Assembly (NCBI GenBank): GCA_903922465.1
Contig: CAIXTV010000021.1
Coordinates: 91 to 64,090 of the forward strand
Direction of reading: 5' to 3'
Length of the DNA: 64,000 nucleotides
From: an uncultured bacterium
Lineage (GTDB): Bacteria > Bacteroidota > Bacteroidia > Bacteroidales > CAIXTV01
This document shows, in pieces, positions 3,811 to 23,962 of this stretch. The position numbers were made by a program, and so were the translations under genes. Every line of letters starts with the position of its first letter. The stretch's first letter is position 1. The notes below the pieces were generated by a model. That model was not told where the DNA came from, searched no databases, and saw only the letters and a list, made by a program, of their open reading frames with translations.

Positions 3811-3895
3811 GCCCTGGTGGTGGAACTGGTAGACACGCAGGACTTAAAATCCTGTTGCCATTGCGGCAGTGCGGGTTCAAGTCCCGCCCGGGGTA
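3811..3895 (+). tRNA. tRNA-Leu (anticodon TAA), class II with long variable arm; CCA is encoded at 3896-3898
   Basis: The anticodon stem-loop GCAGGA-CTTAAAA-TCCTGT gives anticodon TAA. Variable arm is TGCCATTGCGGCAG. T-arm is GCGGG-TTCAAGT-CCCGC. The acceptor GCCCTGG/CCGGGGT has two G-U pairs. Confidence 0.88.
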
Positions 3896-3896
3896 C
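3837..3896 (+). repeat. attL core: 60-bp direct repeat (3-prime part of tRNA-Leu), identical to 57968-58027
   Basis: gcaggacttaaaatcctgttgccattgcggcagtgcgggttcaagtcccgcccggggtac occurs at both positions. I compared them base by base by eye. The flanks diverge immediately outside. Confidence 0.9.
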
Positions 3897-4031: not shown

Positions 4032-5447
4032 TTACACCTCCAAATCTTTTTCTAGGTTATTACCTTTTGTTGAAGTACGAACTTCTTTTAAATCATCTAC
4101 CCTCCCAGATTCATTTGAAAACATGCTAAATCTTCTAGCAACTGCCTTTGCAATTTCTTTATCATCGGTATAACTATCATCAATCACCCTATTATCGGAG
4201 TGTCCTGTAATTGATTTTATATTTCCATCTCCCATATATATTTTTAGGTAGGTGATGTATGTTTTTCTTAAGCATTTTAAAGTAAGTTTCCTTCCTGTAC
4301 CTAATTGATCGTAGAAATGGGAGAAGCCACGGCTAAGATTATCTGACATAAACCTTTTCCTTTTTATTTTTATTTCAGGAGCCAATATATAATTATCGGT
4401 ATTCTCGTATTTTTCATAACCCAATTCTTTTAATAATCTCAAAAGTGATTCTGTGACAGGGATATAGATAAATTTCTTCTCATCTTCAGTATTTCGTCTT
4501 TGTATATGATTTACTTTGAAATCCTCTACCTTAATAAATTTATCCCCTTCGCTTTCTATAATTTTATTCCACTTAAGATTTATCAACTCTTCCCTTCTAC
4601 GTCCAGTTTCAAGTGCAAGCCTAATACCATCTTTAAGCCACGGACGATATAAATTTCTTGTTGGCTTTACTCCATTTTCGTATTTCTTTATTCCATTCTC
4701 AGGAGTAATTTGTTTGAGTAAGGCTTCATATTCTGTTTTGGTAATTGCTTCGGGTTTTGGATTTAATTTTTTCCTCTCTACTTCTTCAAACCAATTTATT
4801 ATTGGCACTCTATATTCTTCCCCATACCATTTTAAAATTGAAGAATAAAACCCAAAGATTTTATTAAAGGTTCTATTCGCGTATTCCTTATCTTCTAAAT
4901 AGGTATATATTTCCCCTACTATATCATCATTAAGATCATTGATTGATAATGTCGAAAGATTATGTCCATTACTTTTGAAACACTGAGCTAAAATCTTGCA
5001 TGCTCTTTCAACATCCTTAATGTGTTCTTCGCTTCTAACTTTTATTTTGTGTGCTGGAACCCCTTCGTTCCTTAGCCAGCCAACATACCTTGCTAGTACT
5101 TGTATTAATAATTGTGGCTGATTATTTCCTTTTGTATTTTCAGTAGAATTTGTTTTTTGGTACCTTCCCTCCTTAACCTCTTTTTTAAATTCCAATGCTT
5201 GCTTAATTGCTTCATCAAGGTTCCTCGTTTCTAAATTCTTTGTCCTTCTTTCATTCCTGGTACCTGGGATATGAACTATTACTTTGTAAACATGCTTTTC
5301 TCCATTGGGGCATAACTTTAATGATTTGCCTGTTAGTTTACATGTATCAACCATGTCTCTATTGCACTTATAACAATATACTACCAATCCTTTTATCCTT
5401 TTAGTCGGTGAAATATATAATGGCTTATTTTCCATGGTCTGTATCAT
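4032..5447 (-). CDS. Tyrosine-type site-specific integrase of the island
   Basis: 471 aa. Catalytic-domain motifs are ETGRRREELINLKW (Arg), LRKTYITYL (HxxR-like position) and ITGHSDNRVIDDSYTD (His...Tyr). It lies adjacent to the tRNA attL. Confidence 0.85.
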   Translation of the reverse strand: MIQTMENKPLYISPTKRIKGLVVYCYKCNRDMVDTCKLTGKSLKLCPNGEKHVYKVIVHIPGTRNERRTKNLETRNLDEAIKQALEFKKEVKEGRYQKTNSTENTKGNNQPQLLIQVLARYVGWLRNEGVPAHKIKVRSEEHIKDVERACKILAQCFKSNGHNLSTLSINDLNDDIVGEIYTYLEDKEYANRTFNKIFGFYSSILKWYGEEYRVPIINWFEEVERKKLNPKPEAITKTEYEALLKQITPENGIKKYENGVKPTRNLYRPWLKDGIRLALETGRRREELINLKWNKIIESEGDKFIKVEDFKVNHIQRRNTEDEKKFIYIPVTESLLRLLKELGYEKYENTDNYILAPEIKIKRKRFMSDNLSRGFSHFYDQLGTGRKLTLKCLRKTYITYLKIYMGDGNIKSITGHSDNRVIDDSYTDDKEIAKAVARRFSMFSNESGRVDDLKEVRTSTKGNNLEKDLEV

Positions 5448-6605: not shown

Positions 6606-6915
6606 TATTCTATGCTAAACTTGATTTGCCTTTGGAATACCGTGAATATTCTCGAGGTCCAGAGTTTTATTATAACTTTGGTCAAGCCCCTCTTTGGCGA
6701 GAGGGGCTTTTTTTATAATGTGAACTCTTTACATTGTTTATAAGAACTATTGTGTTTAATGAATGTTTCTCATTTTAAGTATTTTTGTTAGTAATTTCAT
6801 ACCGTCATTTTTTATGTCAAATCCGTCAAAACTTCCACTTAATGACGATTATTCAATATATTTGAATGATATTAAGCTATTAATCCCTGAAAAGTTATTA
6901 AAATATATTCATCCC
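6606..6915 (+). repeat. Diverged direct repeat, copy A (leader plus 5-prime end of a TPR-type gene)
   Basis: It aligns by eye to 13049-13345. Example: ctatgctaaac...ggaata.cgtga.tattct..a.gtccagagtt.tattataa.ttt.gtcaagccc ... tttgtttaatgaatgt.tctc ... tttttatgtcaaatc.gtcaaa ... attcaatatatttgaatgat. Identity is roughly three quarters and was not computed. Confidence 0.75.
6684..6715 (+). terminator. Strong intrinsic terminator-like hairpin inside repeat copy A
   Basis: aagcccctct / agaggggctt is a 10-bp stem followed by T8. No plus-strand ORF lies upstream of it. Confidence 0.55.
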
Positions 6916-7053
6916 CATTTGAGTGAATCATATTTTACGAAAAGTCACAAAATCAACTACATTACTTATTTTTTTTATGGATTTCCAATTTCTGACGATC
7001 GAGCAATTATAATTTGTTCATCAAATAATCCTTTTTCTCCTTGTTTTTTATAA
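6814..7053 (+). pseudogene. Truncated paralogue of the N-terminus of the TPR protein at 13245-14399
   Basis: MSNPSKLPLNDDYSIYLNDIKLLIPEKLLKYIHPHL compares with MSNLSKHPFKDEYSIYLNDNKLFIPEKLLRYIHTQL. It diverges and stops after about 79 aa. Confidence 0.55.
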
Positions 7054-7310
7054 TTTTGTGAGGTCATCTTTTTTTTGCATTTGTTAATATACAAATATAG
7101 GCGCAATTATTTATATATCAAATTATTAAATTAAAGATCTCCCCAGAATATTTTTGTTTGACGTTGATTTTTTTTGAAAGAATGATACAATTGTGATAAA
7201 AGTAATCGCTGGGAAATGATTAATGATATAAAGAAAACGTGAAACACAAAGTGATTGAAAGCAGAAAGTTAATTTTACCAATTAAATAAATAAGAAAGGA
7301 ACTATTTTTT

Positions 7311-7886
7311 ATGATTTATTTTGTCAGACATGGTCAAACAGATTGGAATGTGGAACAGAAGACACAAGGGCATACAGATATCCCATTAAACGCCGACGGG
7401 ATATCACAAGCCGAAACCATTGCAAAAAGTATTTTAAATTTAAATATAAATAGAATTATTTCTTCAGATTTGTTGCGTGCCCGCGAAACAGCTGAAATTA
7501 TAAACCAATCAATAGGAGTTGATATCTCATTTGATCAACGATTACGAGAAATTAATTACGGTGATTTAGAGGGAATTCCAAGGACAGAACTTACTCCAAA
7601 TATTTGGGATGTTTTTAATGATACTCCAGAAAAACTAAATGCTGAACCGATGTCAAGTGTTTTTGAAAGAATAAAGAGTTTTTTTGATGAGTTAAATCAA
7701 CACCAAGATAATATTTTAATTGTTACTCATGGTGGTGCATTACGTATTATTATGCATTATGCAGAAAGTCGTGACTCTTATGATAAAGAAAAATATTCAA
7801 ATTCTCATCAAAATTCTAAAATAAATAATGCCTCAATATTTCAGTGGAATAAAGAGCAAACAGCAATACAACCTGTTTTTTTGTGA
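7311..7886 (+). CDS. Histidine phosphatase family protein (phosphoglycerate-mutase-like)
   Basis: IYFVRHGQTDWN (RHG motif) and IVTHGGALR (second catalytic His). Confidence 0.85.
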   Translation: MIYFVRHGQTDWNVEQKTQGHTDIPLNADGISQAETIAKSILNLNINRIISSDLLRARETAEIINQSIGVDISFDQRLREINYGDLEGIPRTELTPNIWDVFNDTPEKLNAEPMSSVFERIKSFFDELNQHQDNILIVTHGGALRIIMHYAESRDSYDKEKYSNSHQNSKINNASIFQWNKEQTAIQPVFL

Positions 7887-7968
7887 TTTAATTAGTTAGT
7901 CAGTCATGTAAATATTTGAATGAGCATTGCATTGAGTATAAAATAGATAAAGCATTTTAAGGAATAAT

Positions 7969-9420
7969 ATGACTGAAATAACACCTAATATATTATTAAT
8001 AGGATGCGGAGCCCACGCAAAACGAGTTTATTTGCCAGGGCTAAAAGCAACTGAGAGTAAGTTTGGAACATTACTGAAGGCAGTTGTTGAATTAGCGGAA
8101 AAAGAATCAGATACCAATGCATTTCTTTCTAATTTTTATCCTTCTTTTCGAGGAATATATATTGTTCCTTTTTATCAGCAATATTCCCACTCCCTTCCTT
8201 TATACGTAGAACAGCTATTAAATAAAACTGTTATAGAGCTAAATATCAACAGTGTTATAATAGCTACAGATCCTCTTAATCATATGCAATATGCTTTATG
8301 GGCGCAAAAAATGAGTTTGCATATTTTGATGGACAAACCGATTTCAACGTATGAAAATATTTCAAACTCCATTGAACAAACCAAGCAACTTAAAAGTGAT
8401 TTTGGACAACTCATGGAAAAATACTCTACAGAAAAAGCTTTTATTATCAATGTCCAAAGAAGATTTTTACCGCAATTTGAAATTATTCAATCTAAAGTGA
8501 ATGAAATTGCTAAGAAATATGGTATTCCCGTAACTTCAATGCAAAGCACACATAGTGATGGACAATGGCGTTTACCGAAAGAAGGGTTGGAGATTAAATA
8601 TCACTCTAATCTCGGCTGGGGGAAAATTTCTCATAGTGGGTATCATTTTATTGATATGGCAGGTAAGATAGTTAAAGACTCTTTTAAAGAATCTGGGAAA
8701 ATAATTGACGAATTATCAGTTTATGCCCAATTTATACGACAACAAGGTATTTTGAAACAACAATCGCGACAAGATATGATACGTATATTTGGACAAGAAT
8801 ATCAAGAATTGGTTTCACAAAGTGACAGAGAGCTAGCTCATTTGTATAAGATACATAATGAGGCTGAGGTTGATGCAACAGCTATAATTAATCTTTCGCA
8901 TGAAGGGATTCCGGTTACAAATATCACATTGAATTTAATGCATAATGGTTTTTCGCGGCGTGCTTGGATGTTGCCAAATAATGATTTATATAAAGGAAAT
9001 GGTCGGATTAGGCACGAACATCATAATATTCAACAAGGCCCCCTTCAAAACATTCAAATTCATTCCTATCAATCAAATGATAATCATGATTTCAACACTG
9101 AATCTGATTTTTCAGTTGGAGGAAACAATCATTATGATATTCATATATATAAAAATGTAGGTATTATAGGTGGTACACTTCTAGAAATTATTACAGCGAA
9201 AGATGTTGCAGATCAATACGGTCTTGATAAAACGAAAGTAATGAATGAATTGGCACGTCATGCGGCAATTAATGAATTTTTAGAGGTTATTATTGGGATA
9301 AGAAAAGGAAATAATACAAAGGCAAATTTAGCTGATCACGCTTTATCGGTACAGCTGATGTCAATGATTTATGAGGCTGGAATTACTAATTCAAATGTAA
9401 TTCAACCAGTTAAAATTTAA
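7969..9420 (+). CDS. Gfo/Idh/MocA-like NAD(P)-binding oxidoreductase with a long divergent C-terminal domain
   Basis: N-terminal Rossmann motif ILLIGCGAHAKRVYLPGL. VIIATDPLNHMQYALWAQKMSLHILMDKPIS matches the family pattern V.I.TP...H...a..al.aGkhVl.EKP. Confidence 0.6.
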   Translation: MTEITPNILLIGCGAHAKRVYLPGLKATESKFGTLLKAVVELAEKESDTNAFLSNFYPSFRGIYIVPFYQQYSHSLPLYVEQLLNKTVIELNINSVIIATDPLNHMQYALWAQKMSLHILMDKPISTYENISNSIEQTKQLKSDFGQLMEKYSTEKAFIINVQRRFLPQFEIIQSKVNEIAKKYGIPVTSMQSTHSDGQWRLPKEGLEIKYHSNLGWGKISHSGYHFIDMAGKIVKDSFKESGKIIDELSVYAQFIRQQGILKQQSRQDMIRIFGQEYQELVSQSDRELAHLYKIHNEAEVDATAIINLSHEGIPVTNITLNLMHNGFSRRAWMLPNNDLYKGNGRIRHEHHNIQQGPLQNIQIHSYQSNDNHDFNTESDFSVGGNNHYDIHIYKNVGIIGGTLLEIITAKDVADQYGLDKTKVMNELARHAAINEFLEVIIGIRKGNNTKANLADHALSVQLMSMIYEAGITNSNVIQPVKI

Positions 9421-9430
9421 GGAATAGAAT

Positions 9431-10285
9431 ATGGAAAATTCAAATAAACCAAATTCTTATCAAATCGAAGACCCTATAAACAAGGGAGAAGTTATTGTAA
9501 CTTGGATTATGACCCATGCATGTCAAGAAAATTGTGGCTATTGTATTAGTCCAACTAAAACTGATGAACTTTCAACAGAAATTGAGCATTTTACTATTCA
9601 AAATAAACTTATCAAAGATGGACTGACAAAAATGAGATACATTGGAGGAGAACCACTCATAATCAAACATTTTCCAAAATTAATAGCAAGTGCTTATGAT
9701 AGCGGTGTTAATACACGATTGAGCACGAATGGTATTCTTCTTGTGGCTAATAAATTTGATAAGATTAAACCATTTATCAATTCTATTGCTTTGCCATTTG
9801 AATCTCTAAATGATGAGATTAATACACAAATAAGAGGTAATAGATTACATCGACGCATTATATCATCACGAATTGATATGATACAAGACGCTGGAAATAT
9901 TGGTATATTAATTAACACTTGTGTCCATAAAGAAAATATTGATGAACTTGAGGCATTAGGTGGATTTCTTAGTGAAAAAAAAGTAAATCATTGGAAATTA
10001 AGACGATTTAATTCTTCAAGCGGTCGTGGTGCTATACCTAATAAAGATAGATTTGATATTACAGATGAAGCATTTTTTCAAAAAGTAGATTTATTAAAAA
10101 GGACTTATCCTGATTTGAAAATCGATGGAAGATTGCCATCAAAGTTAGAAACACGATTGATGGTTTCTCCACAAGGATTGCTATATAGAATGGTTGGATC
10201 TGACGAAGAAAACGTTCATTATGGAAAAGTAACAGATCGAAAAATAAATGTAGGGATTATATCTGTAAGAGATCGTTGTGATTAA
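9431..10285 (+). CDS. Radical SAM enzyme, viperin/MoaA-like (single 4Fe-4S cluster)
   Basis: The CX3CX2C motif is THACQENCGYC. It is followed by MRYIGGEPLI, TRLSTNGILL, SIALPFESLNDEINTQIRGN, ILINTCVHKENIDE and VNHWKLRRFN. Viperin blocks as I recall them occur in the same order: CNYKCGFC, INFSGGEPFL, VSIVSNGSLI, LAISCDSFDEEVNVLIGRG, FKINSVINRFNVEED, PVRWKVFQCL. There is no C-terminal Cys cluster. Confidence 0.65.
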   Translation: MENSNKPNSYQIEDPINKGEVIVTWIMTHACQENCGYCISPTKTDELSTEIEHFTIQNKLIKDGLTKMRYIGGEPLIIKHFPKLIASAYDSGVNTRLSTNGILLVANKFDKIKPFINSIALPFESLNDEINTQIRGNRLHRRIISSRIDMIQDAGNIGILINTCVHKENIDELEALGGFLSEKKVNHWKLRRFNSSSGRGAIPNKDRFDITDEAFFQKVDLLKRTYPDLKIDGRLPSKLETRLMVSPQGLLYRMVGSDEENVHYGKVTDRKINVGIISVRDRCD

Positions 10286-10993
10286 GTGCAAAATAAAATG
10301 GATATTAAAAATTCTAATACATGTAAGTATTATCTCCACATTGAAGGAATGGATTTAGCTGGGAAATCAACAGTATCTAAAACATTTGCTCAAACAAGTG
10401 AAATAAAATGGATTATCAATGATAAAAGATTAACGCAAGACAATCCGATTTATGATTTTGCTATAGGGCTTTCAAAAAAAGGCGGATTCGACAGTGAAAC
10501 TTTAGGGTACATGTATCTAGCTGCGTTGACACAAGATATAATCAACTTTAAATTAGATGCTAACATTATTCAAGATTCGACTCTTTTATTACGTTCTCTT
10601 AATTATTATAAAAATGTGAATCTAAACAATGAATTAGCTCAAGCCTTTTCTAAACTTATACAGCAACACCCAACACCAAATAAATCTTTCTATCTAACGG
10701 CTGATATTTGTTCGCGACGCCAACGCTTAGCACAAAGAATAGAAATAGAACCTGAAAAATTAACCTCAATGGATCTATTAATTCAGAATGATCCTAACAG
10801 ATTTATGCAGATTGATGAATCTCTTCAAAATATTTCTGTTAATATTTTTAATTCAGAGGTCATTGATACATCAAAAATGAGTATTATGGAAGTAGTTAAA
10901 TGTATACAATTGGGTTGTTCTGCTTCGATACAAAGAATTGTATTAGGCCAAGGTATTACGAACCGGAGGGGTGATGCAAATGGAAGAAAGTAA
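10286..10993 (+). CDS. Thymidylate-kinase / deoxynucleoside-kinase-like P-loop nucleotide kinase
   Basis: The P-loop HIEGMDLAGKST resembles Tmk IEGxxGxGK(S/T)T. A GTG start abuts the rSAM stop, with an alternative ATG at 10298. The 3-prime end overlaps the next gene by 23 nt. Confidence 0.6.
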   Translation: MQNKMDIKNSNTCKYYLHIEGMDLAGKSTVSKTFAQTSEIKWIINDKRLTQDNPIYDFAIGLSKKGGFDSETLGYMYLAALTQDIINFKLDANIIQDSTLLLRSLNYYKNVNLNNELAQAFSKLIQQHPTPNKSFYLTADICSRRQRLAQRIEIEPEKLTSMDLLIQNDPNRFMQIDESLQNISVNIFNSEVIDTSKMSIMEVVKCIQLGCSASIQRIVLGQGITNRRGDANGRK

Positions 10994-11639
10994 TTGGAAT
11001 GAATTATATGCTAAATACATACAAGCTGAATTTAAAAGCTGGGATGAGTATTTTTCTATAAAAATGAAATTAAAAAAAAGATTTCTCAATTTGATTGTTA
11101 AGCACTCAACACCTAATAAGCCCGTATTAGAATGTGGGGCTGGAACTGGTAAATTTTCTGTATATCTTGCTTCGCTAGGTTTCAATACTTACGCTATAGA
11201 TTTAGAACGTGAAATGGTTGAACAAGCAAAACAATTATCAGACCTAGTTTGCCACCAAAACCCGGTAAAAGTTTTACAAGGGGATATTAGCTCTATTCCA
11301 TTTCATAATAAATTTTTTGCAGTATCCCATAGCAGTGGAGTTTTAGAACATTTCAGTGATTCAAAAATCATAGAACTTATTAATGAGCAGTTGCGTGTAT
11401 CGGACACGATTGTATTTAGTGTCCCTTCGCGTTATTTTGATAAAAGAATGCAAGGTAATGAACGTTTTTTGACAAAACAAGAATGGAGAAATATCATTTC
11501 AAACAGTAATGCCAAAATCATCAATGAAACGGGATATCATTATAAAACGCTAAAATATCGAATGTATGATACAATTAAAAATCCAAAACAAATTTTTAAA
11601 CCTATCGCACTGTTTGCGTTTGTTTTAAAGGAGAAATAA
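10971..11639 (+). CDS. Class I SAM-dependent methyltransferase
   Basis: Motif I is VLECGAGTGKFSVYLA. Post-I acidic residue is in AIDLEREMV. GVLEHFSD is typical of the Methyltransf_11/25 type. Confidence 0.8.
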   Translation: MMQMEESNWNELYAKYIQAEFKSWDEYFSIKMKLKKRFLNLIVKHSTPNKPVLECGAGTGKFSVYLASLGFNTYAIDLEREMVEQAKQLSDLVCHQNPVKVLQGDISSIPFHNKFFAVSHSSGVLEHFSDSKIIELINEQLRVSDTIVFSVPSRYFDKRMQGNERFLTKQEWRNIISNSNAKIINETGYHYKTLKYRMYDTIKNPKQIFKPIALFAFVLKEK

Positions 11640-11640
11640 T

Positions 11641-12189
11641 ATGATATATCTAGTACGTCATGGACAAACCGATTGGAATTCAGAAGGAAAGAATCAAGGT
11701 CAAACCGATATTGAGCTTAATCCAGAAGGGATTATACAGGCTGAAATCCTTAAAAAAGAGCTTAAAGATATCGATTTTGATATCGTTTTTTCCAGTCCTT
11801 TAAAACGCGCTTTAAAAACCGCACAAATTATTCATCAGGGCTCTATTATTACTGATAATCGTTTAATGGAAAGATGTAATGGAGAATTAGAAGGTAAATA
11901 TAAAGAGTATCAAGTAGTAGATTTTACAGATCCTAAGGAGACTAGGTTTAATATTGAAGCACTACCTATTTTTAGAAAAAGAATAGTAGATTTTTGGGAT
12001 GATGTATTAAAAAATCATGGTGATAAAAATGTATTAGTTGTTACTCATGCGGGTGTAGGGATATATAGCCAATGTTATTTTAAGGGTGAGCCTCAAAATG
12101 GTGATTATAAACAATATGTGATGAAAAATTGCGATATCATTAAGATAGATACCAGCAGGATTGTATCTTGCTGTAGAACAGGAAAATAA
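11641..12189 (+). CDS. Histidine phosphatase family protein (second copy)
   Basis: IYLVRHGQTDWN and VVTHAGVG. It starts 1 nt after the methyltransferase stop. Confidence 0.85.
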   Translation: MIYLVRHGQTDWNSEGKNQGQTDIELNPEGIIQAEILKKELKDIDFDIVFSSPLKRALKTAQIIHQGSIITDNRLMERCNGELEGKYKEYQVVDFTDPKETRFNIEALPIFRKRIVDFWDDVLKNHGDKNVLVVTHAGVGIYSQCYFKGEPQNGDYKQYVMKNCDIIKIDTSRIVSCCRTGK

Positions 12190-12223
12190 GATGGGGCTCT
12201 TTTTTTAAAATCTGAATAAACGA

Positions 12224-12772
12224 TTAAGATCTATCTTTCTGTATAGTTAATATATGTTCAATATGGGGTTGTAATATCTTTAATTTTTCTTTAATAAAGG
12301 TTGGATATGCTTCGTATTCTTGTAATTTATCAATGGGAAGCCATTCTAATACTTCTTTAATTCCATGTGTATAACTATCGCTGTTAAGTTGCTGTGTTCC
12401 GCGTGATTTCATTAAAAAATAAAAAGTAATTTCATGGCATGATAAACCCTTTAGTAGGCCATCTTCTCGTTTAAAAAAGTTCTCTTGTATAAAAGCAAGG
12501 CGATCTATTTCATAAGCGGTACCTGTTTCCTCTAACACTTCACGCAACACGGCTTGCTCAGCTGTCTCGCCTAAATGAATCCCCCCTCCAATTGAATAAT
12601 AATAATTTTCAGATTCATTTGTTGCAAACAGTATGCAATCATTTTCTATAATGATACCTGCTGCTCTTAATCTAAAACGGTTATTATCTTTGTCTTGGAA
12701 ACAACAATCAGGCGTATGCATGATAATTTCATTAGTTAGTTTCATTATAAAATGATAGGTAATTTTATTCAC
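12224..12772 (-). CDS. Nudix hydrolase
   Basis: Complete Nudix box GGGIHLGETAEQAVLREVLEETG. It is convergent with the rSAM operon. Confidence 0.85.
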   Translation of the reverse strand: MNKITYHFIMKLTNEIIMHTPDCCFQDKDNNRFRLRAAGIIIENDCILFATNESENYYYSIGGGIHLGETAEQAVLREVLEETGTAYEIDRLAFIQENFFKREDGLLKGLSCHEITFYFLMKSRGTQQLNSDSYTHGIKEVLEWLPIDKLQEYEAYPTFIKEKLKILQPHIEHILTIQKDRS

Positions 12773-13048
12773 AAATGTACAAAAATATCTTCAGTTGGCA
12801 CACATACGCATAAAAATCCATCCAATTAAAATAAACCCGAACCAATAGCGATCAAAGCAAAATATTTAATTACAAATTTTATATATCACTAACCCTCTGC
12901 TGTTTATATGCCATAAAACCTCAGTGCTTCTTAACTCACCGTTTCAGGTACAGCCAAACTTTTCGTCAAGCACTTTGACAGGAGCAGAGTAACCGAAATG
13001 ATCCTTTGGGAGTGAAATGCTTAAAATAGATTACTTAATATTTTTATG

Positions 13049-13345
13049 TATACTATGCTAAACTTTATTTACACTTGGAATAGCGTGATTATTCTTGATG
13101 TCCAGAGTTATATTATAATTTTAGTCAAGCCCTTATCGTCAAATAGGAACTTTTTTTATAAGAGACCTCTTTACTTTTTTTTAAAGATCTGTTTTGTTTA
13201 ATGAATGTATCTCTTTTTTAGTATTTTTGTTATGCAATTTTTTTATGTCAAATCTGTCAAAGCACCCATTTAAAGACGAATATTCAATATATTTGAATGA
13301 TAATAAACTTTTTATACCAGAAAAGTTATTAAGATATATTCATAC
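13049..13345 (+). repeat. Diverged direct repeat, copy B (leader plus 5-prime end of the intact TPR gene)
   Basis: See copy A (6606-6915). Confidence 0.75.
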
Positions 13346-14399
13346 ACAATTGAAGTTTATTCTTATTGAAAAATCAAATAAGAAATCATGGGATGCAATC
13401 AGTAATTACCTTACAGGTTATTTTAATAAGGATTTTAAAGAAAATCATTTTGACGTCTTTCAAATTTTGTTTTCTTCTGGCATTGGCATAAGTGCAGCTA
13501 ATATTGAAAGAGCTATAAGAGGCAAAAAAGGAGTTCAGAAAGTAAAAGTAAAATACGAATTAATAGATTTCTTGTGCTATGTTACTTGGGGTAAATCATT
13601 GATAGATAAATTATTTGATAGTAAAGAAAATTGGAATACTAAAATAATTCATGATGTTATTATTCCAGATTATGCATTAGATGAATTGAATAAGGTTAAA
13701 TATAAGGCACAGGACTTTTATAAAAACAGGTTAGAGGTTAATCCAAATAAATCTACCTTACATAATAATTACGCAAAATTACTTTATTCAAAATTTAATG
13801 ATATTAAAGAAGCTGAAAAACATTTTAATTTAGCAATTGAATTAAACCCTCAAAACTATGCGGCTCATTATAACTATGCGGTTTTCTTAAAAAATAAGAT
13901 GGCTGATTATGATGGAGCTAAGAAACACTACGAAATGGCTTTAGAAATTAATCCGTATAATGCGAGTATACATAATAACTATGCAAGTCTTCTCATAGAT
14001 TTTTTCAACGATGTGGATAAGGCTAAGATACATTACGAAAAAGCCTTAGCCAGCAATCCGTTATACTTTTTATATAATTTAAATTATGCTATCTTGCTTT
14101 CAGATTATCTTAATGAAAAGAAATTGGCAATTGTTTATTTTAAAAAGACCTTAGATATTGATCCTGAAAATTGTAATGCCCATCATCATTATGCAAATTT
14201 TCTTGCAAATAAACTAAACGATATGGGGGAAGCTAATAAACATTATAAAAGGGCTTTAGACATTAATCCTGAAAATATTACGGTTCACAAGAATTATGCG
14301 ATTTTTCTTACTGACAAACTGAATGATCCTAAGGAAGCGGATTTCCACAACAAGGAAGCACTCAGATTAATCAAAAACAGAATTAAGAAAACATCTTGA
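13245..14399 (+). CDS. TPR-repeat protein with a unique ~190-aa N-terminal domain
   Basis: About seven 34-aa repeats of the form NP.N...H.NYA.FL......D..A..HY..AL.INP. The ORF track starts at a TTG at 13194. ATG 13245 (MSNLSKHPF) is the likelier start. Confidence 0.8.
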   Translation: MSNLSKHPFKDEYSIYLNDNKLFIPEKLLRYIHTQLKFILIEKSNKKSWDAISNYLTGYFNKDFKENHFDVFQILFSSGIGISAANIERAIRGKKGVQKVKVKYELIDFLCYVTWGKSLIDKLFDSKENWNTKIIHDVIIPDYALDELNKVKYKAQDFYKNRLEVNPNKSTLHNNYAKLLYSKFNDIKEAEKHFNLAIELNPQNYAAHYNYAVFLKNKMADYDGAKKHYEMALEINPYNASIHNNYASLLIDFFNDVDKAKIHYEKALASNPLYFLYNLNYAILLSDYLNEKKLAIVYFKKTLDIDPENCNAHHHYANFLANKLNDMGEANKHYKRALDINPENITVHKNYAIFLTDKLNDPKEADFHNKEALRLIKNRIKKTS

Positions 14400-14750: not shown

Positions 14751-16130
14751 ATGAAACTATTTGATCTTTTATATGAAAAGGGATTTCCTAAACTCACATT
14801 CAAAATTCTCTTAAAATTAAAAGTTGGAGATTATTTCGTAATTGCTCCACCCAATTCACATTCGTTCATAATCAAAAATAATGGTTTTGTTTTTAAAAAA
14901 CAATTTCGTTCAGATGAATTCTTTTTTTTATCTTCATTTGATTTACATGAAATTGAAATGATGCACTTCATTACAGTTGCAACAATAAACAGTCAGGCTT
15001 ATATTTTATCAGAAAACTATTTTATTAAAGAATCTATTTCAACCTATCTCGATATCGCGACAAACCCAACTAAATATCAAGACACTTTTAAAGTGTTTGA
15101 TACTTATTCCCTTCCACATGTTATTGAAAGTATTGGATACCTTAATCAAAATTATGCATACGGAAAATTAAATTCAATCAGAGAATTTCTTTCTGCAAAG
15201 AGCAATGACTATTCTCTTATAGACTTCATTTGGCAAAATATTTTCACTACCAACATCACAGATTATGATGCTGCTGAAATTCTTATGCAGAATCATAAAT
15301 TCAATATTCCAAATTCTGTAAGCATTATTATTCCATGCTTTGAATCTAACGACACAATTTCTAATACAGTTGAATCGGCCTTATTAGCATTATCCCTTCT
15401 TCCTCAATCATCTTTCAAAGAAATAATTGTTGTTGATGATTCAAGAACTCTCAATGTAAAATTCAAACAAAAGGAAATCAAGATAATTTCTTCTGATTTT
15501 AAGTTGCATTGTGGGGGAGCAAGAAATGTAGGAATGTCGGTAGCAAAAGGTGAAAATATTTTTTTAATTGACTCTGACACCTATATTGCCCAAAATTATT
15601 TGATAAATCATATCCTCCGACATAACTTTTTCCCAAACTTTATTTCGGTATCTATGCGAGAACAAATAAAAAATATCTCTATCCCAAAAGTAGAGCCTAA
15701 AATTAATTCAGACTCAAGGGTTGAAAAAACGTACAGCACAGAATGGAAAACATTGAACAGTATTTCTGAATCAACAACTGTTATGCCATTAAGTGAAACT
15801 AATAAATTCAAACACTTTGGTTTTGGGAAAAAACTTGGACCAACTGATTTACCTTTTATGGTTAAAGGAAATAATGCTTCATTTTCACGAAAGTCAATTG
15901 GTAATCTTTCATTCTGCAATAAATATGAAGGGTGGGGACCCGAAGATGTTTCTTTTGCAGCAAATCTTATTTCAAAAGGCTTTTTTGTATTACCGATTTT
16001 GTCAACAGGTGTATTTCATGTTGAACATTCGCCTCGTTCAGGAAGTTATGAACAAAAGGAAAAAGAATTGAAATTTAACTTAAATGTTCATGATTCAATT
16101 CTAAATAGTCACCCATACGAAACATGGTAA
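14751..16130 (+). CDS. Family 2 glycosyltransferase with an unknown ~190-aa N-terminal extension
   Basis: GT-A motifs VSIIIPCFESNDTISNTVESAL, EIIVVDDSR, GGARNVGM and IFLIDSDT (DxD). Confidence 0.75.
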   Translation: MKLFDLLYEKGFPKLTFKILLKLKVGDYFVIAPPNSHSFIIKNNGFVFKKQFRSDEFFFLSSFDLHEIEMMHFITVATINSQAYILSENYFIKESISTYLDIATNPTKYQDTFKVFDTYSLPHVIESIGYLNQNYAYGKLNSIREFLSAKSNDYSLIDFIWQNIFTTNITDYDAAEILMQNHKFNIPNSVSIIIPCFESNDTISNTVESALLALSLLPQSSFKEIIVVDDSRTLNVKFKQKEIKIISSDFKLHCGGARNVGMSVAKGENIFLIDSDTYIAQNYLINHILRHNFFPNFISVSMREQIKNISIPKVEPKINSDSRVEKTYSTEWKTLNSISESTTVMPLSETNKFKHFGFGKKLGPTDLPFMVKGNNASFSRKSIGNLSFCNKYEGWGPEDVSFAANLISKGFFVLPILSTGVFHVEHSPRSGSYEQKEKELKFNLNVHDSILNSHPYETW

Positions 16131-17257
16131 TGCAAACAAAAAATATTGACTTTGCATTTACTGACGGTTGGCATCCAACGGTTAATCCTTCCTCTCGAAT
16201 GCCTATTTATTATTTACGGCACAAGCAATTATTTCCGGGACACCCAATAATTCTAAATGAATTTCCAAGAACTAAAGGAGGTTCAACGTTTAGGTTTATA
16301 AGATTTCAAGAACCAACCTCACTTCAAAACATTATTGTAAAAGCTCAAAATACATTATTCGAGTTTATGCCTTGGTGGTTACCTTCCACATTATCAGATA
16401 GTTTTCTTTTTAAAATTTACGATAATATTCTAAAAAGTGATTCTGGAATAACATCATCTGAAAGACTTTGCATTGATGAATTTTACAGTGAATTAAAGGT
16501 AAAAGTATCTTCTGAATTATCAATTGGAGAATTGTTGAACTCAATAAATTTTGACAGATATAAAATCATTTTACCTAATTTGCCTGAAATCAATTGTATA
16601 AGTTTTTCAAAAAGTGTTTTCAAAAATATTTTTCAAGACATACTATCAATTAATCAAGAGAAGTTTTTTTATATTTTAAATCAACTTTGCAAAAGGCAAG
16701 AAATCACCTATTTGACGAAAGTTGCATTTTGCAACGACACTGATTATAATATATACAGAATTAGTTGGGTAGTGCCTGAAAGGCATTTTCACAAAATTAA
16801 GATTGATGTAAAGACGGGTGTAAATATTGGTAGTAGAGAAACCTATTCTTATGAAAGTTTTATCTCTGACATTGAATATGGACGTATTGTTTTAAGTTCA
16901 AAAATTTCATGCATAGCTGAATCACTTGCCTCACTAAGTGGTAAATTCTTTTTCCATTTTGGTAATACATATAATCATTTTGCAGAAATAGCAGCAATTT
17001 TTTCAGATAGCAGAGATTATAATTCACAAACAAAGTTTGTAAATTATTTTAATGATTATGAAGACACATGGAATTATGCTTACTTAAGATTTTCTGATGA
17101 TTATCCAATTCATTTATTTGACCTATTACCGTTGAATGACAACACAGTATTTCAGAAAATATATTCAATTGTGAATAATAGCTTTGAAACCAAATCTCCG
17201 TTTTGCATCCCAGCTACAATTAACTTGGCAGAATCAATCAACGCAGTAAATATCTAA
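16124..17257 (+). CDS. Hypothetical protein (no recognisable motif)
   Basis: 377-aa ORF. It overlaps the GT2 gene by 7 nt and abuts the next gene, so it is part of the operon. Confidence 0.55.
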   Translation: MVMQTKNIDFAFTDGWHPTVNPSSRMPIYYLRHKQLFPGHPIILNEFPRTKGGSTFRFIRFQEPTSLQNIIVKAQNTLFEFMPWWLPSTLSDSFLFKIYDNILKSDSGITSSERLCIDEFYSELKVKVSSELSIGELLNSINFDRYKIILPNLPEINCISFSKSVFKNIFQDILSINQEKFFYILNQLCKRQEITYLTKVAFCNDTDYNIYRISWVVPERHFHKIKIDVKTGVNIGSRETYSYESFISDIEYGRIVLSSKISCIAESLASLSGKFFFHFGNTYNHFAEIAAIFSDSRDYNSQTKFVNYFNDYEDTWNYAYLRFSDDYPIHLFDLLPLNDNTVFQKIYSIVNNSFETKSPFCIPATINLAESINAVNI

Positions 17258-17914
17258 ATGATACAGCAGAAACGACCATATTTGATTGAAGGATTAGATT
17301 GCTCTGGCAAAAAATCTGTTGCTCAACTTGTAAAAGCACAACTTGAAAATGAGTTTCATGTGCCAGTTAAATTAGTTGTTGGCTCATTTGTAAAATCTCC
17401 AATAAAGACTTTTGACAGAATTATTTCAAATCCAAGTAGGTTTTCAAAAAACAGTAGAATAGTTAAAAATCTAAAACAAATTATTTATACAATTGCACCA
17501 GTTATTGATTTCTATTTCTACATACCAAGTAAAAATAAAATTACAATCAAAATCAGTTCACATTTACGTGCTGAAGCCAAAGCTCTAATAGACAAAGATT
17601 TATTTATGATAAAATACTTTAAGAAGTTCAGAAATGTTTCAGTTAAATATCAGGGAGCAGTACTTCTTACATCATCTTTTGAAACAAGAATTTTAAGACA
17701 CAGGGCTGATGTAGGTTCAGATAAAACTAAAAAGGATGAAACAAAAAGATTTTATCAAAACAATCAGCAATTATTTCAAGAGTGGAACAATGCTTTGACA
17801 GATTTAATGAAACATGAAATTAGTTCTGTGAAAATTATCGAGAATGATAATATAAATTTAGAATATATTGCGGATGAAATAATAAACCACATTAAAAGTG
17901 TATACGGACAATGA
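17258..17914 (+). CDS. Thymidylate-kinase-like P-loop kinase (second copy in the island)
   Basis: P-loop YLIEGLDCSGKKS. It has similar size and layout to 10286-10993. Confidence 0.5.
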   Translation: MIQQKRPYLIEGLDCSGKKSVAQLVKAQLENEFHVPVKLVVGSFVKSPIKTFDRIISNPSRFSKNSRIVKNLKQIIYTIAPVIDFYFYIPSKNKITIKISSHLRAEAKALIDKDLFMIKYFKKFRNVSVKYQGAVLLTSSFETRILRHRADVGSDKTKKDETKRFYQNNQQLFQEWNNALTDLMKHEISSVKIIENDNINLEYIADEIINHIKSVYGQ

Positions 17915-18990
17915 AAAAATTTATTTGGCATTTCTACTATTCAAAAAGATTCAGTTTCTATCCGCCGGATTATTATACTATTGGCTTAGGTGGTAGTGAA
18001 TCTGTACTTGTTCTCCTCACTAAATACCTTGCTTCACTTAACCAAGAAGTTCACGTGTTTAATGCTTGTTTTAAACCTGGTATTTATGATAATGTTCATT
18101 GGCATTTACTAACTGATATTAATACGTCGCAAATTCCTGATATTTTTGTTGCAGTTAGATTTGAAGATTCGGTTTTAAAGAATTGTAATGCTAAAGTTAA
18201 CTTATTTTGGATGCTTGATAACAGAGTTGCGGGAGCGTTGAAATTTAAGAGTCTCAATTTGCCAAATTCAAAAATTATTGTTGCATCTGATGCAATGACA
18301 TCATTACTACTTCAAGAAAATATCCCAAGTGATTATCTTATAAAATTGTTTCATCCGATTGAAAACAATATTAAACAATATCAAACACAAACAAATCGAA
18401 AATTAATTTGTCTTTATTCATCAATGCCAACAAGAGGGCTAGATGTAGCATTGGATTGCTGGGTATCTATCCAAAGAGTAGTAAAAGATGCTGAATTATG
18501 GATTACAAACGGTTATGTTCCTTGGGGATTTACAACTGAAGAAGCTGAAGATAAATATAGCCCTTATTTAATTCGTATATCTAAAATGCAAACTGAAGGA
18601 CTATCAATAAAATATTTGGGAGTACTCGCAAGAAGTGACTTCGAAAATTTACTTAGTGAAATTGCAATTCTATTTTATCCTTCCCGTTTTCCTGAAATGT
18701 TTTGTCTCATAGCTGCTGAATGTTCAATGTATGGAATTCCAATTATCACAAGCGACATATTCGCAATGCAAGAGAGAGTTGTAAATAATAAAACTGGATA
18801 TTTAATCAAAGGGGATATTGATCATCTGGAAACTCAAAATGAATTTATTTATAAAACGATTTCCCTTCTTCGTAACATTGACCTACGTGAAAATATGGGT
18901 AATAATTCGAAAGACTTAGCTAAAAATTTAGCAGGCAAAATCATTGCATCAAAATGGATAGACTTTGCAAAAAAAATAATATACAATTAA
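17911..18990 (+). CDS. GT-B fold glycosyltransferase (family 4/1-like)
   Basis: The C-terminal donor-binding region is PSRFPEMFCLIAAECSMYGIPIITSDIFAMQERVVNNKTGYLI (E-x7-E type). An ATGA overlap links it to the upstream gene. Confidence 0.7.
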   Translation: MKKFIWHFYYSKRFSFYPPDYYTIGLGGSESVLVLLTKYLASLNQEVHVFNACFKPGIYDNVHWHLLTDINTSQIPDIFVAVRFEDSVLKNCNAKVNLFWMLDNRVAGALKFKSLNLPNSKIIVASDAMTSLLLQENIPSDYLIKLFHPIENNIKQYQTQTNRKLICLYSSMPTRGLDVALDCWVSIQRVVKDAELWITNGYVPWGFTTEEAEDKYSPYLIRISKMQTEGLSIKYLGVLARSDFENLLSEIAILFYPSRFPEMFCLIAAECSMYGIPIITSDIFAMQERVVNNKTGYLIKGDIDHLETQNEFIYKTISLLRNIDLRENMGNNSKDLAKNLAGKIIASKWIDFAKKIIYN

Positions 18991-19001
18991 ATTTAATATT
19001 T

Positions 19002-19496
19002 ATGAAAACAGAAAAAAAAATTGTTTTTACTTCAAAACCTCATGGAATAAGAGCCGTAGGTTTAGTATTTATTGATGACCAAATTCTTCTAATGCGGAGA
19101 GAAAGTTCAACTAAAAAGTATTTTACCTTTCCAGGTGGTGGTGTCGAACCTAATGAGACGGTGGAAGAAGCCGTTGTTCGTGAAATAAAAGAAGAATGTA
19201 ATTTTAATGTAAGAGTAATTCGTCTTCTATATCACCATGATTTAATAAACGATAGTGATCATTATTTTTATTTATGTGAATATATAAATGGCAACCTCCA
19301 ATTAGGTGGTGAGGAGCTTGAAGAAAATAAAAGAGGTGATATTCATGAACCACTTTTGTTTCCTGTGGCCAAACTTAAAGAAATTACGCTATACCCTTTA
19401 GAAGTTCGCGATTGGGTCATTGCTGATTTCCCTAATCACTTTCATAATGAGGTAAGAAGATTAAATATCCCTGTTTCTGAATTGAGAAATGTATAA
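19002..19496 (+). CDS. Nudix hydrolase (second copy)
   Basis: The Nudix box is GGGVEPNETVEEAVVREIKEECNF, with the final G replaced by N. The ORF track starts at 18954. The internal ATG at 19002 avoids overlap with the GT4 gene. Confidence 0.75.
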   Translation: MKTEKKIVFTSKPHGIRAVGLVFIDDQILLMRRESSTKKYFTFPGGGVEPNETVEEAVVREIKEECNFNVRVIRLLYHHDLINDSDHYFYLCEYINGNLQLGGEELEENKRGDIHEPLLFPVAKLKEITLYPLEVRDWVIADFPNHFHNEVRRLNIPVSELRNV

Positions 19497-20152
19497 TGAA
19501 TTATATGAATGATGTTCATTTAGGTATCCTTTTGAAACCTGATGCAGTTTCTGAAAGCACCCTCTTTTCTTGGGAGCAATTTTATGACTGTCTAGTATCT
19601 CTTAATTCCATTTTATCATCCGATCATTCTACTTCAAATAAATTTCTTCTCCCAAACTCATTGAATGCATACAATGGTTCTTTACGGCAAATTTCAGAAA
19701 GGGGCATATCGGAAATTTCTTTTTCATTTCCTATTTTAAACAAATTACAAATTATTAACACTATTTCGAAGACTATTATCGAGGTTAAAAATTCTAATAC
19801 TACATATTATATTTCAGAAATTATCCAGCGACTTATTTCTCTATTCACTTTTCGTATAGAGCATTATCATGATTTTGTCTTTGACGAAAATGATTGTATT
19901 ACTATTTACTCAACAATTCGCCAAAACGATATTCAGTTATTTAAATCAATTCAATTATATTTGGAAAATAATAAATGTAAAATATATTTTCTTTCAGGAG
20001 ATCAAAACATTACTGCAATTGAATATATAAAGACAATTGTGCGTTATTTTTTTAAATATAAAAATGGGGAAAAGCATCGTCTTGAAAATTATATTCATTC
20101 ATTAGACGAAGTTGAAACTAAATATTTTTTGAAAAAATTACTATCAAATTAA
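19496..20152 (+). CDS. Hypothetical protein, possibly a divergent nucleoside-diphosphate-kinase-like fold
   Basis: N-terminal LGILLKPDAV resembles NDK IIKPDAV. C-terminal ENYIHSLDEVETKYF resembles the NDK active-site region N..HGSDS.E.A..EI..FF. The middle is not alignable by eye. Confidence 0.3.
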   Translation: MNYMNDVHLGILLKPDAVSESTLFSWEQFYDCLVSLNSILSSDHSTSNKFLLPNSLNAYNGSLRQISERGISEISFSFPILNKLQIINTISKTIIEVKNSNTTYYISEIIQRLISLFTFRIEHYHDFVFDENDCITIYSTIRQNDIQLFKSIQLYLENNKCKIYFLSGDQNITAIEYIKTIVRYFFKYKNGEKHRLENYIHSLDEVETKYFLKKLLSN

Positions 20153-23083: not shown

Positions 23084-23962
23084 TTATACTGGGCTAAAAT
23101 ACGCCTTTGCACTCCTCTCAAAGTCCATATCTGAGTATTGCTCATAAATAAAGGTTGATATAGGGTTTAAATGCCCTAATCCCTTTTGAATAAATGACAA
23201 AGGAGCATTTTGATCTCTTCTCTTATGAGCCCATCCATGTCGGAAACTATGAGGAGTAATTTTCTCAATTATTCCTGCCCTTTTTGCATAATGTTTGACC
23301 ATTCTTTCAACACTTCTTGTCGTCAATCTTGTATTCCAACTTCTATTGAAATTTTGTCCTACAAATAAAGCTGAAGCTTTATTGTGGTTGAATAATTCAA
23401 CTCTAATGGGCAAATATCTTAACAAGAGTTGATGTGTTTCTTCTGACCACAATATTGTTCTCATGTTAGCAGTTTTTTTTGTTGCAATAACTGCTCGACG
23501 ATTATTTGTATCGATTTGCGAAATATCTAAATCGCAAAGTTCAGATACTCGAACACCTGTATCCCAAAGCATTCGTGTTATTACTTTATCCCTAAGAAAG
23601 TGAAATTCATTTTCAGGAATAATAGAGATTATTTTTTCAAACTCTTCTTCTTTGATAGCCCTATGCGATTTTGCCATTCCCCTTTTCCTTCTTATAAGAG
23701 ATGGTGGTAAACAGTTATAATTTTGATCTCTATAAAACTGAAAAAAGTTTTTTATAATTACAGTTGCATATTGCAAACTGTAAGGACTATAACGTGCTTT
23801 TATCCAGTTCTGATAATGCACAATATCTGTAATTGTGTAATCTTCTAATGGTTTATCACCACATATCTCAATTAGGCGCTTAAGCCAAATTTTATATGTA
23901 ATGCTTGCTTTCGGGGAATGAATTCCCTTCCAGTCTAAATACTCATGTATTTTTGTCTCCAT
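23084..23962 (-). CDS. XerC/XerD-like tyrosine recombinase (second recombinase in the island)
   Basis: 292 aa. Motifs are LWDTGVRVSELCDLDI (Arg), HSFRHGWA (HxxR) and GLGHLNPISTFIYEQY (His...Tyr). Confidence 0.85.
   Translation of the reverse strand: METKIHEYLDWKGIHSPKASITYKIWLKRLIEICGDKPLEDYTITDIVHYQNWIKARYSPYSLQYATVIIKNFFQFYRDQNYNCLPPSLIRRKRGMAKSHRAIKEEEFEKIISIIPENEFHFLRDKVITRMLWDTGVRVSELCDLDISQIDTNNRRAVIATKKTANMRTILWSEETHQLLLRYLPIRVELFNHNKASALFVGQNFNRSWNTRLTTRSVERMVKHYAKRAGIIEKITPHSFRHGWAHKRRDQNAPLSFIQKGLGHLNPISTFIYEQYSDMDFERSAKAYFSPV

Follow-up and report, generated by a model that had tools for sequence, protein, structure and literature searches.

Viperin converts nucleoside triphosphates (NTPs) into their 3'-deoxy-3',4'-didehydro forms (ddhNTPs) by abstracting a hydrogen from the ribose and eliminating the 3'-hydroxyl group. 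In bacteria, a Tmk/CMPK2-type kinase is linked to 12% of the viperins (10.1101/2023.09.13.557418). Another described route to modified nucleosides is the core shared by puromycin, A201A, cystocin and ADG, which consists of the NAD-dependent, RifL-like ATP 3'-dehydrogenase Pur10, the Nudix hydrolase Pur7, the monophosphatase Pur3 and the methyltransferase Pur5 (PMC11641026, PMC9239236). Here, we analyze a gene cluster that combines in its enzyme set these two known kinds, i.e., viperin-type radical chemistry and puromycin-type tailoring, and belongs to neither of them. It lies in a stretch of 64,000 nucleotides (nt) from an uncultured bacterium (positions 91-64,090 of contig CAIXTV010000021.1, assembly GCA_903922465.1), which is called the window in the following and to which all coordinates refer unless another locus is named. 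The cluster comprises a viperin-related radical S-adenosylmethionine (SAM) enzyme (rSAM), a divergent Gfo/Idh/MocA-fold dehydrogenase (GFO-like), a Tmk-like kinase, a class I methyltransferase (MTase), two histidine phosphatases (HP1 and HP2) and a convergent Nudix hydrolase (Table 1). These genes form one conserved functional unit, which probably makes a modified nucleotide or nucleoside.

The rSAM resembles viperin (pVip/RSAD2) in its CxxxCxxC core, its full-length fold (TM 0.73-0.82), some retained triphosphate-binding positions and the Tmk-superfamily kinase adjoining it in the window, and viperin is its best characterised match in every library. However, the identity is only 18-19%, several positions of the NTP-binding set carry other residues and the base-binding C-terminus is not alignable. 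Moreover, the rSAM is clustered with an MTase, a histidine phosphatase and a Gfo/Idh/MocA dehydrogenase, mostly in housekeeping contexts, and we know of no described viperin locus with this combination. By its gene content, the locus is much more elaborate than the one- or two-gene loci of prokaryotic viperins, as the initial annotation of this DNA had proposed.

With the puromycin-type clusters the locus would share the enzymatic logic, i.e., NAD-dependent oxidation of the NTP sugar, pyrophosphate removal by a Nudix hydrolase, a monophosphatase and an MTase, whereby the GFO-like enzyme is likened to Pur10 by its fold type and NAD motifs. In contrast to these clusters, none of the 22 loci collected in this study has a Pur4-type or any other aminotransferase within the cluster or next to it, its place being taken by the rSAM. 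The cluster phosphatase has the His_Phos_1 fold, making it an analogue of Pur3 and not a homolog, and the hosts are gut Firmicutes instead of actinomycetes or Photorhabdus.

Further radical SAM enzymes are more distant. MoaA, the GTP 3',8-cyclase, is a nucleotide-acting enzyme of the same superfamily and gives the second-best characterised match (E 1e-9). However, the rSAM is 50 residues shorter, lacks the C-terminal auxiliary [4Fe-4S] cluster held by three Cys in MoaA and reaches 53 bits against 284 bits for TIGR02666, and no MoaC or other molybdopterin genes are found nearby. DesII, BlsE and AprD4 perform radical chemistry on sugar rings together with a nicotinamide-dependent redox partner, as AprD4 with the reductase AprD3, but their matches are weaker and partial, and these enzymes are larger and accompanied by glycosyl or aminoglycoside genes absent here. 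The SPASM/twitch maturases SkfB, PqqE, MftC and SuiB share the core only (TMt 0.46-0.56), and the rSAM, with 284 amino acids (aa), has no Cys-rich C-terminus. The neighbors of the rSAM are enzymes, and no genes for peptides or for ribosomally synthesized and post-translationally modified peptides (RiPPs) were found beside it in a search that did not exhaustively cover small precursor open reading frames (ORFs). A role as RiPP maturase was dropped due to the missing SPASM domain and peptide genes.

The radical SAM enzyme

The rSAM matches the Pfam domain Radical_SAM (E 2e-13) and contains the CxxxCxxC and GGEP motifs, which are invariant in an alignment of 28 family sequences as C31-x3-C35-x2-C38 and G72-G73-E74-P75. 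A search space of 5.8 billion proteins yielded a family of 116 clusters at 90% identity, with lengths of 276-289 aa, 54-100% identity to the window protein and a mean column identity of 73% in the family alignment. Among the NCBIfam models viperin_w_prok (NF038283) scores best with 86 bits, followed by PqqE with 57 bits and then MoaA, and the top PADLOC model is "pVip associated with kinases" (6.7e-30). A profile search against the PDB retrieved mouse viperin (3.4e-15) and fungal viperin-like enzymes (1e-13 to 1e-10) ahead of MoaA, with peptide maturases at 1e-7 or weaker. The AlphaFold2 (AF2) model of the rSAM (pLDDT 85) is superposed by Foldseek over its full length on the viperins 5vsl, 6q2p, 7n7h and 9dfn (TMq 0.73-0.77, TMt 0.75-0.82), several of the best-matching structures holding CTP or UTP, while SkfB, SuiB, DesII and MoaA superpose in part only. 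Viperins are described as having a partial (beta-alpha)6 barrel that a C-terminal extension closes (10.1101/2023.09.13.557418), and the AF2 model with its full-length superpositions agrees with this fold.

The description of the enzyme as viperin/MoaA-like in the initial annotation therefore stands in so far as viperin is the nearest characterised family, ahead of MoaA, in NCBIfam, PADLOC, the PDB profile search and Foldseek. Membership in the curated viperin family does not stand, since 86 bits is well under the 180-bit cut-off and the rSAM is not a viperin by this curated measure. Judged by its sequence, the rSAM is a viperin-related enzyme outside the curated viperin family, and we conclude that its family is a new one among the viperin-related members of the superfamily.

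From the work on structure 6Q2P we take K120, R194, K220, N222, R245, K247, N77 and H79 of mouse viperin to be the triphosphate/ribose-binding residues; the numbering agrees with the mouse viperin sequence in the profile alignment. K120, N222 and K247 are kept as K67, N162 and K189 of the rSAM, and the invariant R135 lies near the position of R194 as an approximate match. Moreover, R69, R96, R191, R199, R207, R234, R242 and R253 are further invariant basic residues of the family. This invariant Arg/Lys set is consistent with a polyphosphate substrate, suggesting that the rSAM probably still binds a polyphosphorylated molecule. Besides the cysteine triad, only the two cysteines C164 and C283 are invariant in the 28 sequences, which excludes a MoaA-type or SPASM-type auxiliary cluster.

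In an exhaustive profile search the family collapses to one representative at 50% identity, with 25 matches at E <= 1e-30, and is surrounded by a continuum of relatives of approximately 250-290 aa, which with 100-216 bits are nearer to it than viperin. Viperin is the best match for all ten relatives that were checked, at 62-132 bits and in each case under the cut-off. The nearest outgroup enzyme (P0242) is solitary amid housekeeping genes and for this reason gives no functional clue. Another outgroup enzyme (P0250) is encoded at the end of an operon in locus L037 (1622-6786) with the order PfkB, Tmk-like/AAA_18 kinase, Peptidase_U32, MTase and radical SAM enzyme; Peptidase_U32 is the family of anaerobic RNA/quinone hydroxylases, and the operon is another candidate nucleotide-modification set. 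In the outgroup locus L038 a HAD gene precedes the radical SAM gene. Outgroup operons with kinases, phosphatases and MTases support a theme of small phosphorylated molecules in this part of the superfamily.

A conserved gene set around the rSAM gene

Looking up contigs, scanning 185,579 species genomes and mapping homologs locally resulted in 22 loci, all from uncultured gut metagenome-assembled genomes (MAGs) or gut metagenomes of humans (including Hadza), rabbit and roe deer. The hosts are Clostridia, Bacilli and Mollicutes-like MAGs, with RF39-like MAGs among the carriers in the species-genome scan, and the rSAM is 54-68% identical across the loci. A core of rSAM, class I MTase, HP2 and the GFO-like protein of approximately 480 aa occurs together in essentially every complete locus, whereby the gene order is shuffled. 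In type A loci (labelled Clostridia) GFO-MTase-HP2 is divergent from the rSAM gene, with or without a convergent Nudix gene and HP1. Type B loci (labelled Bacilli, Mollicutes or Tenericutes) have the order Nudix-MTase-HP2-rSAM, in some a second MTase, and HelD, AckA and the GFO-like gene. Furthermore, GFO-Nudix fusion proteins of 656 aa are encoded in two loci (L011 and L027) and a GFO-Nudix-MTase fusion protein of 876 aa in a third (L026).

As the linkage survives rearrangement and fusion proteins exist, the genes work together. With 22 independent loci in which homologs of the rSAM are surrounded by this gene set, the arrangement in the window is far beyond chance. The conserved synteny and the fusions bear out the proposal of one functional unit. 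Of the seven-gene set as initially annotated, the core of rSAM, MTase, HP2 and GFO-like gene recurs, while the kinase is found in three of the 22 loci and a Nudix gene in 12 of the 19 non-redundant ones. Neither the rSAM family nor the cluster is covered by a curated NCBIfam, Pfam or PADLOC model, and no description of the gene combination was found in full-text literature.

In the window, the seven ORFs, their order and the gaps of 82, 10, 0, -23 and 1 nt between the six plus-strand genes match the ORF listing exactly, and the domains assigned to all seven proteins were recovered by the Pfam, NCBIfam and PADLOC profile scans. Translations and alignments reveal complete catalytic motifs in all seven proteins. 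Translational coupling of the six genes is plausible for the last four junctions and overstated for the 82-nt gap. The start of the kinase is ATG 10298 in the public gene call and GTG 10286 in the ORF list. No internal terminator was predicted in the operon; an extended -10 promoter-like site is located at 7164-7191, such sites being not above the frequency in shuffled sequences. An Rfam scan of the window and seven diverse loci revealed no riboswitch.

A UvrD-like helicase and an acetate kinase were considered as cluster components; because both pass the curated HelD and AckA thresholds, they were treated as clade synteny. AckA is slightly ambiguous, as it may reflect housekeeping synteny or a real carboxylate-kinase step: eight type B loci (L007, L011, L014, L021, L023, L025, L027 and L029) have a bona fide AckA-family gene immediately upstream of the GFO-like one, and another AckA lies 1 kb from a Tmk-like gene in the unrelated locus L036. 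Directly upstream of the type B cluster of L007 (5015-7924), a 543-aa protein with a CFNNCSFC motif and no Pfam match adjoins a NADAR-DHH fusion, with a Q_salvage (DUF2419) gene nearby.

The GFO-like protein, whose gene is present in nearly every locus, matches Pfam PF01408 with its N-terminal domain only and just over the cutoff (27 bits, 6e-06). Its AF2 model (pLDDT 86.6) adopts the Gfo/Idh/MocA fold, and the best Foldseek matches are NAD-dependent sulfoquinovosidase, glucuronide-3-dehydrogenase, DgpA, aldose-aldose oxidoreductase and scyllo-inositol dehydrogenase (TMt 0.70-0.75), all of which oxidise a secondary hydroxyl group of a sugar or cyclitol ring. GxGxxA, an acidic E41 at the end of beta-2, DKP instead of EKP, H226 and D229 are conserved. 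In its predicted structure, the protein is thus of the sugar-ring-dehydrogenase fold. With 1,209 matches its family is about ten times as large as that of the rSAM.

GFO-like relatives at 47-53% identity belong to a separate conserved cluster without rSAM, MTase or histidine phosphatase, which contains an IOR-alpha-like thiamine pyrophosphate (TPP) protein, an aldehyde dehydrogenase, Abhydrolase_11 and unknown proteins. It was seen in loci L033-L036 (e.g., L035 8001-13512) with a GFO-like protein, the IOR-alpha-like TPP protein, a Tmk-like kinase, a 460-aa unknown protein/aldehyde dehydrogenase and Abhydrolase_11; L036 also has type IV secretion system (T4SS)-pilin genes, and in L035 a weak GapS1-like match lies downstream of the cluster. 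The 205-aa gene of these rSAM-less clusters belongs to the kinase family of the window (166-190 bits), so that oxidoreductase and kinase form an older two-gene module with varied partners.

The kinase itself reaches 22 bits (1e-04) for Pfam Thymidylate_kin at a cutoff of 27, its ortholog in L022 reaching 29.6 bits, and 23 bits for TIGR00041 at a cutoff of 83. The P-loop GxxxxGKS and the Tmk-type Arg-rich lid RRxRLxxR are present, and the DRY position reads QDS. A profile search against the PDB gave no match at E <= 1. The family has 321 matches, and the fusion of some members to a Nudix domain (P0413) or an inorganic pyrophosphatase (P0449) points to nucleotide or pyrophosphate chemistry; one member (P0458) is labelled Saccharimonadales. 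As it occurs in three of the 22 loci (window, L015 and L022) and accompanies the oxidoreductase in rSAM-less clusters, the kinase is not a core component, and the initial suggestion that it makes the NTP substrate of the rSAM is an oversimplification.

The MTase (Methyltransf_25, 5.6e-14) has orthologs of 274-347 bits in all complete loci and is always encoded directly upstream of HP2 (His_Phos_1, 5.2e-41), which is present in 22 of 22 loci. HP1 (His_Phos_1, 1.2e-46), with orthologs in L003-6, L015, L018 and L022, reaches 127 bits for the NCBIfam alpha-ribazole phosphatase at a cutoff of 163. For both phosphatases the best NCBIfam match is CobC, under threshold, with the RHG motif and the second His intact. 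The Nudix protein (NUDIX, 3.4e-15) has an intact GX5EX7REVxEETG box. A Nudix gene closing the locus is in line with the other loci in so far as the 12 linked ones lie within approximately 2 kb of the rSAM gene and those of L003 and L018 are placed convergently like the window copy. However, the window copy is weakly similar to the cluster-linked Nudix proteins elsewhere (E 1e-6 to 1e-11), and the other kinase-type loci, L015 and L022, have no Nudix gene. Single-sequence PDB searches with the GFO-like protein, kinase, MTase, phosphatase and Nudix protein gave no substrate-specific relatives.

Proposed pathway and competing readings

With moderate confidence, we favor a small-molecule pathway in which the sugar of a nucleotide is modified and a methylated, dephosphorylated product is released. 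The enzyme set maps onto the viperin and puromycin-type nucleoside-core precedents, which suggests a route from nucleotide to modified nucleoside; we infer substrate class, step order and product from the enzyme families. A nucleotide would be supplied, which in the mobile cluster version would be phosphorylated by the Tmk-like kinase. The rSAM would then perform viperin-like 5'-deoxyadenosyl radical chemistry on the ribose, and the NAD-type Gfo/Idh/MocA enzyme would oxidise or reduce a ring carbon, comparable to Pur10 acting at C3' of ATP. The Nudix hydrolase could remove pyrophosphate, converting the NTP into the monophosphate as Pur7 does, the MTase may methylate the intermediate, and HP2, tightly coupled to it, would remove the last phosphate to yield a free nucleoside analogue, with HP1 as putative accessory second phosphatase. 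The retained viperin residues together with the extra invariant Arg/Lys residues, viperin as best match, the sugar-ring-dehydrogenase fold of the oxidoreductase, the fusions of cluster proteins and of the kinase family, the outgroup operons and the conserved association support this model. The product may act as an antimetabolite or antiviral, or it may be a physiological metabolite. Tentatively, the cluster might be an "extended viperin" pathway of abundant human and animal gut commensals, in which the rSAM and a Pur10-like dehydrogenase would together reshape the ribose and the MTase, Nudix hydrolase and phosphatases would mature the product, leading to a new methylated deoxy/didehydro (or keto) nucleoside that acts as antiviral or antimicrobial antimetabolite; the pathway would be mobile as a cassette.

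Several observations weigh against the nucleoside pathway. Besides falling short of NF038283, the rSAM does not have TIGR04278 (cut-off at least 450 bits) among its top matches. Four of the eight viperin residues listed above are replaced (K220 by L160, R245 by H187, N77 by S24 and H79 by I26), and the profile alignment with viperin stops at family position 222 of 282, leaving unalignable by sequence the C-terminal approximately 60 residues, a region that binds the nucleobase in viperins (10.1101/2023.09.13.557418). The nucleobase-binding residues of the viperin beta-8 loop are Lys319/Cys314 and Arg257 or a conserved Asn. Nineteen of the 22 loci lack the kinase, and in the rSAM-less clusters its pairing with the GFO-like protein beside aldehyde dehydrogenase and TPP-type genes hints at a non-nucleotide sugar or acid as substrate. 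The usual substrates of Gfo/Idh/MocA enzymes are sugars, cyclitols or NDP-sugars. The product class is anchored by no riboswitch, transporter or resistance gene at the cluster, and since all enzymes stay below the curated equivalog thresholds, substrates can be assigned by analogy only.

Another reading of the cluster is that of a pathway for a sugar phosphate, an NDP-sugar or a cyclitol, e.g., a deoxy methylated sugar, in which the rSAM would be of the DesII/AprD4/BlsE type and the Nudix hydrolase would cleave an NDP-sugar. The match of the GFO-like fold to sugar C3 and inositol dehydrogenases, the occurrence of DesII and BlsE among the structure and sequence matches of the rSAM, the GFO-Nudix fusion, which suits NDP-sugar chemistry, the aldehyde dehydrogenase and TPP-type protein of the rSAM-less clusters and the glycosyltransferase genes downstream in the window (14751-18990) argue for it. 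However, viperins fit the rSAM better and over its full length than DesII, BlsE or MoaA, the kinase is Tmk-like and not a sugar kinase, the cluster has no nucleotidyltransferase and the glycosyltransferases are unlinked to it at all other loci. We regard a sugar or cyclitol product as rather unlikely. A role in DNA hypermodification, in which a modified dNTP is incorporated into DNA, was dropped, as no transglycosylase or inserting enzyme of the polymerase type is linked.

Genomic setting and meaning of the cluster

Returning to the favored nucleotide-to-nucleoside pathway, its setting in the window bears on a possible role in defence. Two 60-nt att repeats bound an integrated element of approximately 54 kb that carries the operon and is integrative and probably conjugative. 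A second integrase in the element (23084-23962, minus strand) suggests that it is composite. The initial description as a mobile island packed with defence systems is correct for the window, given the att repeats, integrase, T4SS coupling protein and defence cargo (Table 1). Direct repeats of approximately 360 nt around the operon duplicate the upstream region and the start of a TPR gene, a cassette signature which suggests that the operon was inserted or exchanged by recombination. The left repeat contains a pseudo-ORF (6763-7053) and a terminator-like hairpin (6684-6709), which is degraded in the right copy.

Table 1. Genes of the cluster and features of the integrated element in the window.
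Feature	Position	Strand	Remarks
attL, 3' half of tRNA-Leu(taa), integration site	3837-3896	+	perfect 60-nt repeat
Tyrosine integrase	4032-5447	-	within element
Left direct repeat, truncated copy of TPR-gene upstream region and first ~45 codons	6568-6940	+	~360 nt
HP1, histidine phosphatase branch 1, CobC/GpmB-like	7311-7886	+	191 aa; accessory, in type A loci
Divergent Gfo/Idh/MocA-fold NAD-type dehydrogenase (GFO-like)	7969-9420	+	483 aa; core
Viperin-related radical SAM enzyme (rSAM)	9431-10285	+	284 aa; core, signature gene
Tmk/CMPK2-superfamily P-loop kinase	10286-10993	+	235 aa, GTG start; accessory
Class I SAM-dependent methyltransferase (MTase)	10971-11639	+	222 aa; core
HP2, histidine phosphatase branch 1, CobC-like	11641-12189	+	182 aa; core
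Nudix hydrolase, convergent	12224-12772	-	182 aa; probable but uncertain cluster member
Right direct repeat, true 5' end of TPR gene (13194-14399)	13010-13365	+	78-85% identical to left repeat
REase-ARP	24869-25792		defence cargo
GmrSD	30490-32328	-	defence cargo
DUF3732 protein and ABC-3C CTD7 protein	32433-36204	-	defence cargo
QueC-like protein and KAP NTPase, Qat-like	37468-41525	-	defence cargo
AAA_21 ATPase, 895 aa	41749-44436	-	defence cargo
Type I restriction-modification (R-M), hsdS/hsdM/hsdR	44447-50320	-	defence cargo
T4SS coupling protein	53394-54839	-	within element
attR, perfect 60-nt repeat of tRNA-Leu 3' half	57968-58027	+	0 matches expected in shuffles

Following the TPR gene, a plus-strand block at 14751-20152 encodes GT2, two proteins without Pfam match, GT1, a Nudix protein (18954-19496) and an unknown protein, and is unlinked to the rSAM cluster in all other loci. 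Also within the element, the minus-strand genes at 27153-30499 encode an NTP_transferase, a metallo-beta-lactamase-fold protein, a HAD phosphatase and a glycerate kinase, possibly a small-molecule module for a nucleotide-activated glycerate. Outside the element, tandem copies with a 41-nt period and 86-100% identity are found at 63737-63875.

In locus L015, where the kinase gene is included in the same arrangement, a PcfJ-like gene and a rolling-circle Rep flank the cluster and place it likewise in mobile DNA, so that at least two of the three kinase-bearing loci are mobile. Most other loci are chromosomal with housekeeping neighbors: acc/fab, Sua5 and TetR-MMPL in L003-6, a variant that was seen in 131 sample blocks with unchanged neighbors, and PolC, ABC-F, HelD, AckA and the tmRNA gene elsewhere. 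PADLOC applied to 148 neighbor proteins from 13 loci gave mostly generic single-domain matches and no obviously complete system. Furthermore, no member of the rSAM family was found in viral contigs or in phage and plasmid records by the viral-contig scan and tblastn.

This setting might be read as that of an extended prokaryotic-viperin antiphage system, in which a ddhNTP-type chain terminator would be tailored by the oxidoreductase and the MTase, and the Nudix hydrolase and phosphatases would limit self-toxicity. The top PADLOC match, the Tmk/CMPK2-type kinase next to the rSAM as seen for a minority of bacterial viperins, the location in an element of the tRNA-Leu gene together with Type I R-M, Qat-like, ABC-3C, GmrSD, REase-ARP and AAA_21 genes and the mobile copy in L015 speak for it. 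However, the rSAM stays under the viperin cut-off, as do relatives nearer to it than viperin, the sample-block variant with its same neighbors resembles a stable core locus, and neither the neighbors scanned with PADLOC nor the phage and plasmid records add to the case. A location in a defence island or on a mobile element applies to the window and, in so far as it is mobile, to L015; most loci lie among housekeeping genes, which by the refutation criterion of the initial annotation weakens the defence reading. The antiviral claim thus rests on one or two mobile copies, and we consider a dedicated antiphage system doubtful.

The same surroundings raise the question of whether the cluster serves salvage, repair or a cofactor-type pathway in the housekeeping of gut Firmicutes with small genomes, e.g., for a damaged, diet-derived or host-derived nucleotide, that came secondarily onto the integrative and conjugative element. 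The chromosomal synteny in most lineages, the maintenance in Mollicutes-like and RF39-like MAGs and phosphatases closest to CobC would fit, but the family is rare, as its 116 clusters in so large a search space illustrate, and taxonomically narrow, gene order and accessory genes vary, mobile copies exist, and no known cofactor pathway fits the enzyme set in the NCBIfam scan, making such a role improbable. A chance juxtaposition of unrelated genes, for which only the weak resemblance between the Nudix gene of the window and those linked to the cluster elsewhere could be put forward, is refuted by the same set in 22 loci and the fusion proteins, and its probability is practically negligible.

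Among antiviral and anticancer drugs, nucleoside analogues form a major class, and to our knowledge the products of viperin are the only known natural chain-terminating antiviral nucleotides. Against this background, the operon, which probably makes a modified nucleotide or nucleoside, is a testable candidate for new nucleotide chemistry and possibly for a new bioactive nucleoside of the gut. It is carried by common but uncultured gut bacteria, and one of its variants was seen in over 100 sample blocks. As a target for experiments the cluster is well suited; the antiviral claim is weakened by most homologs lying in housekeeping contexts. The reaction of the rSAM is likely new even if its role is metabolic rather than antiviral. 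Moreover, the family points to uncharted small radical SAM enzymes that are nearer to it than viperin and are encoded in operons with kinases, phosphatases and MTases.

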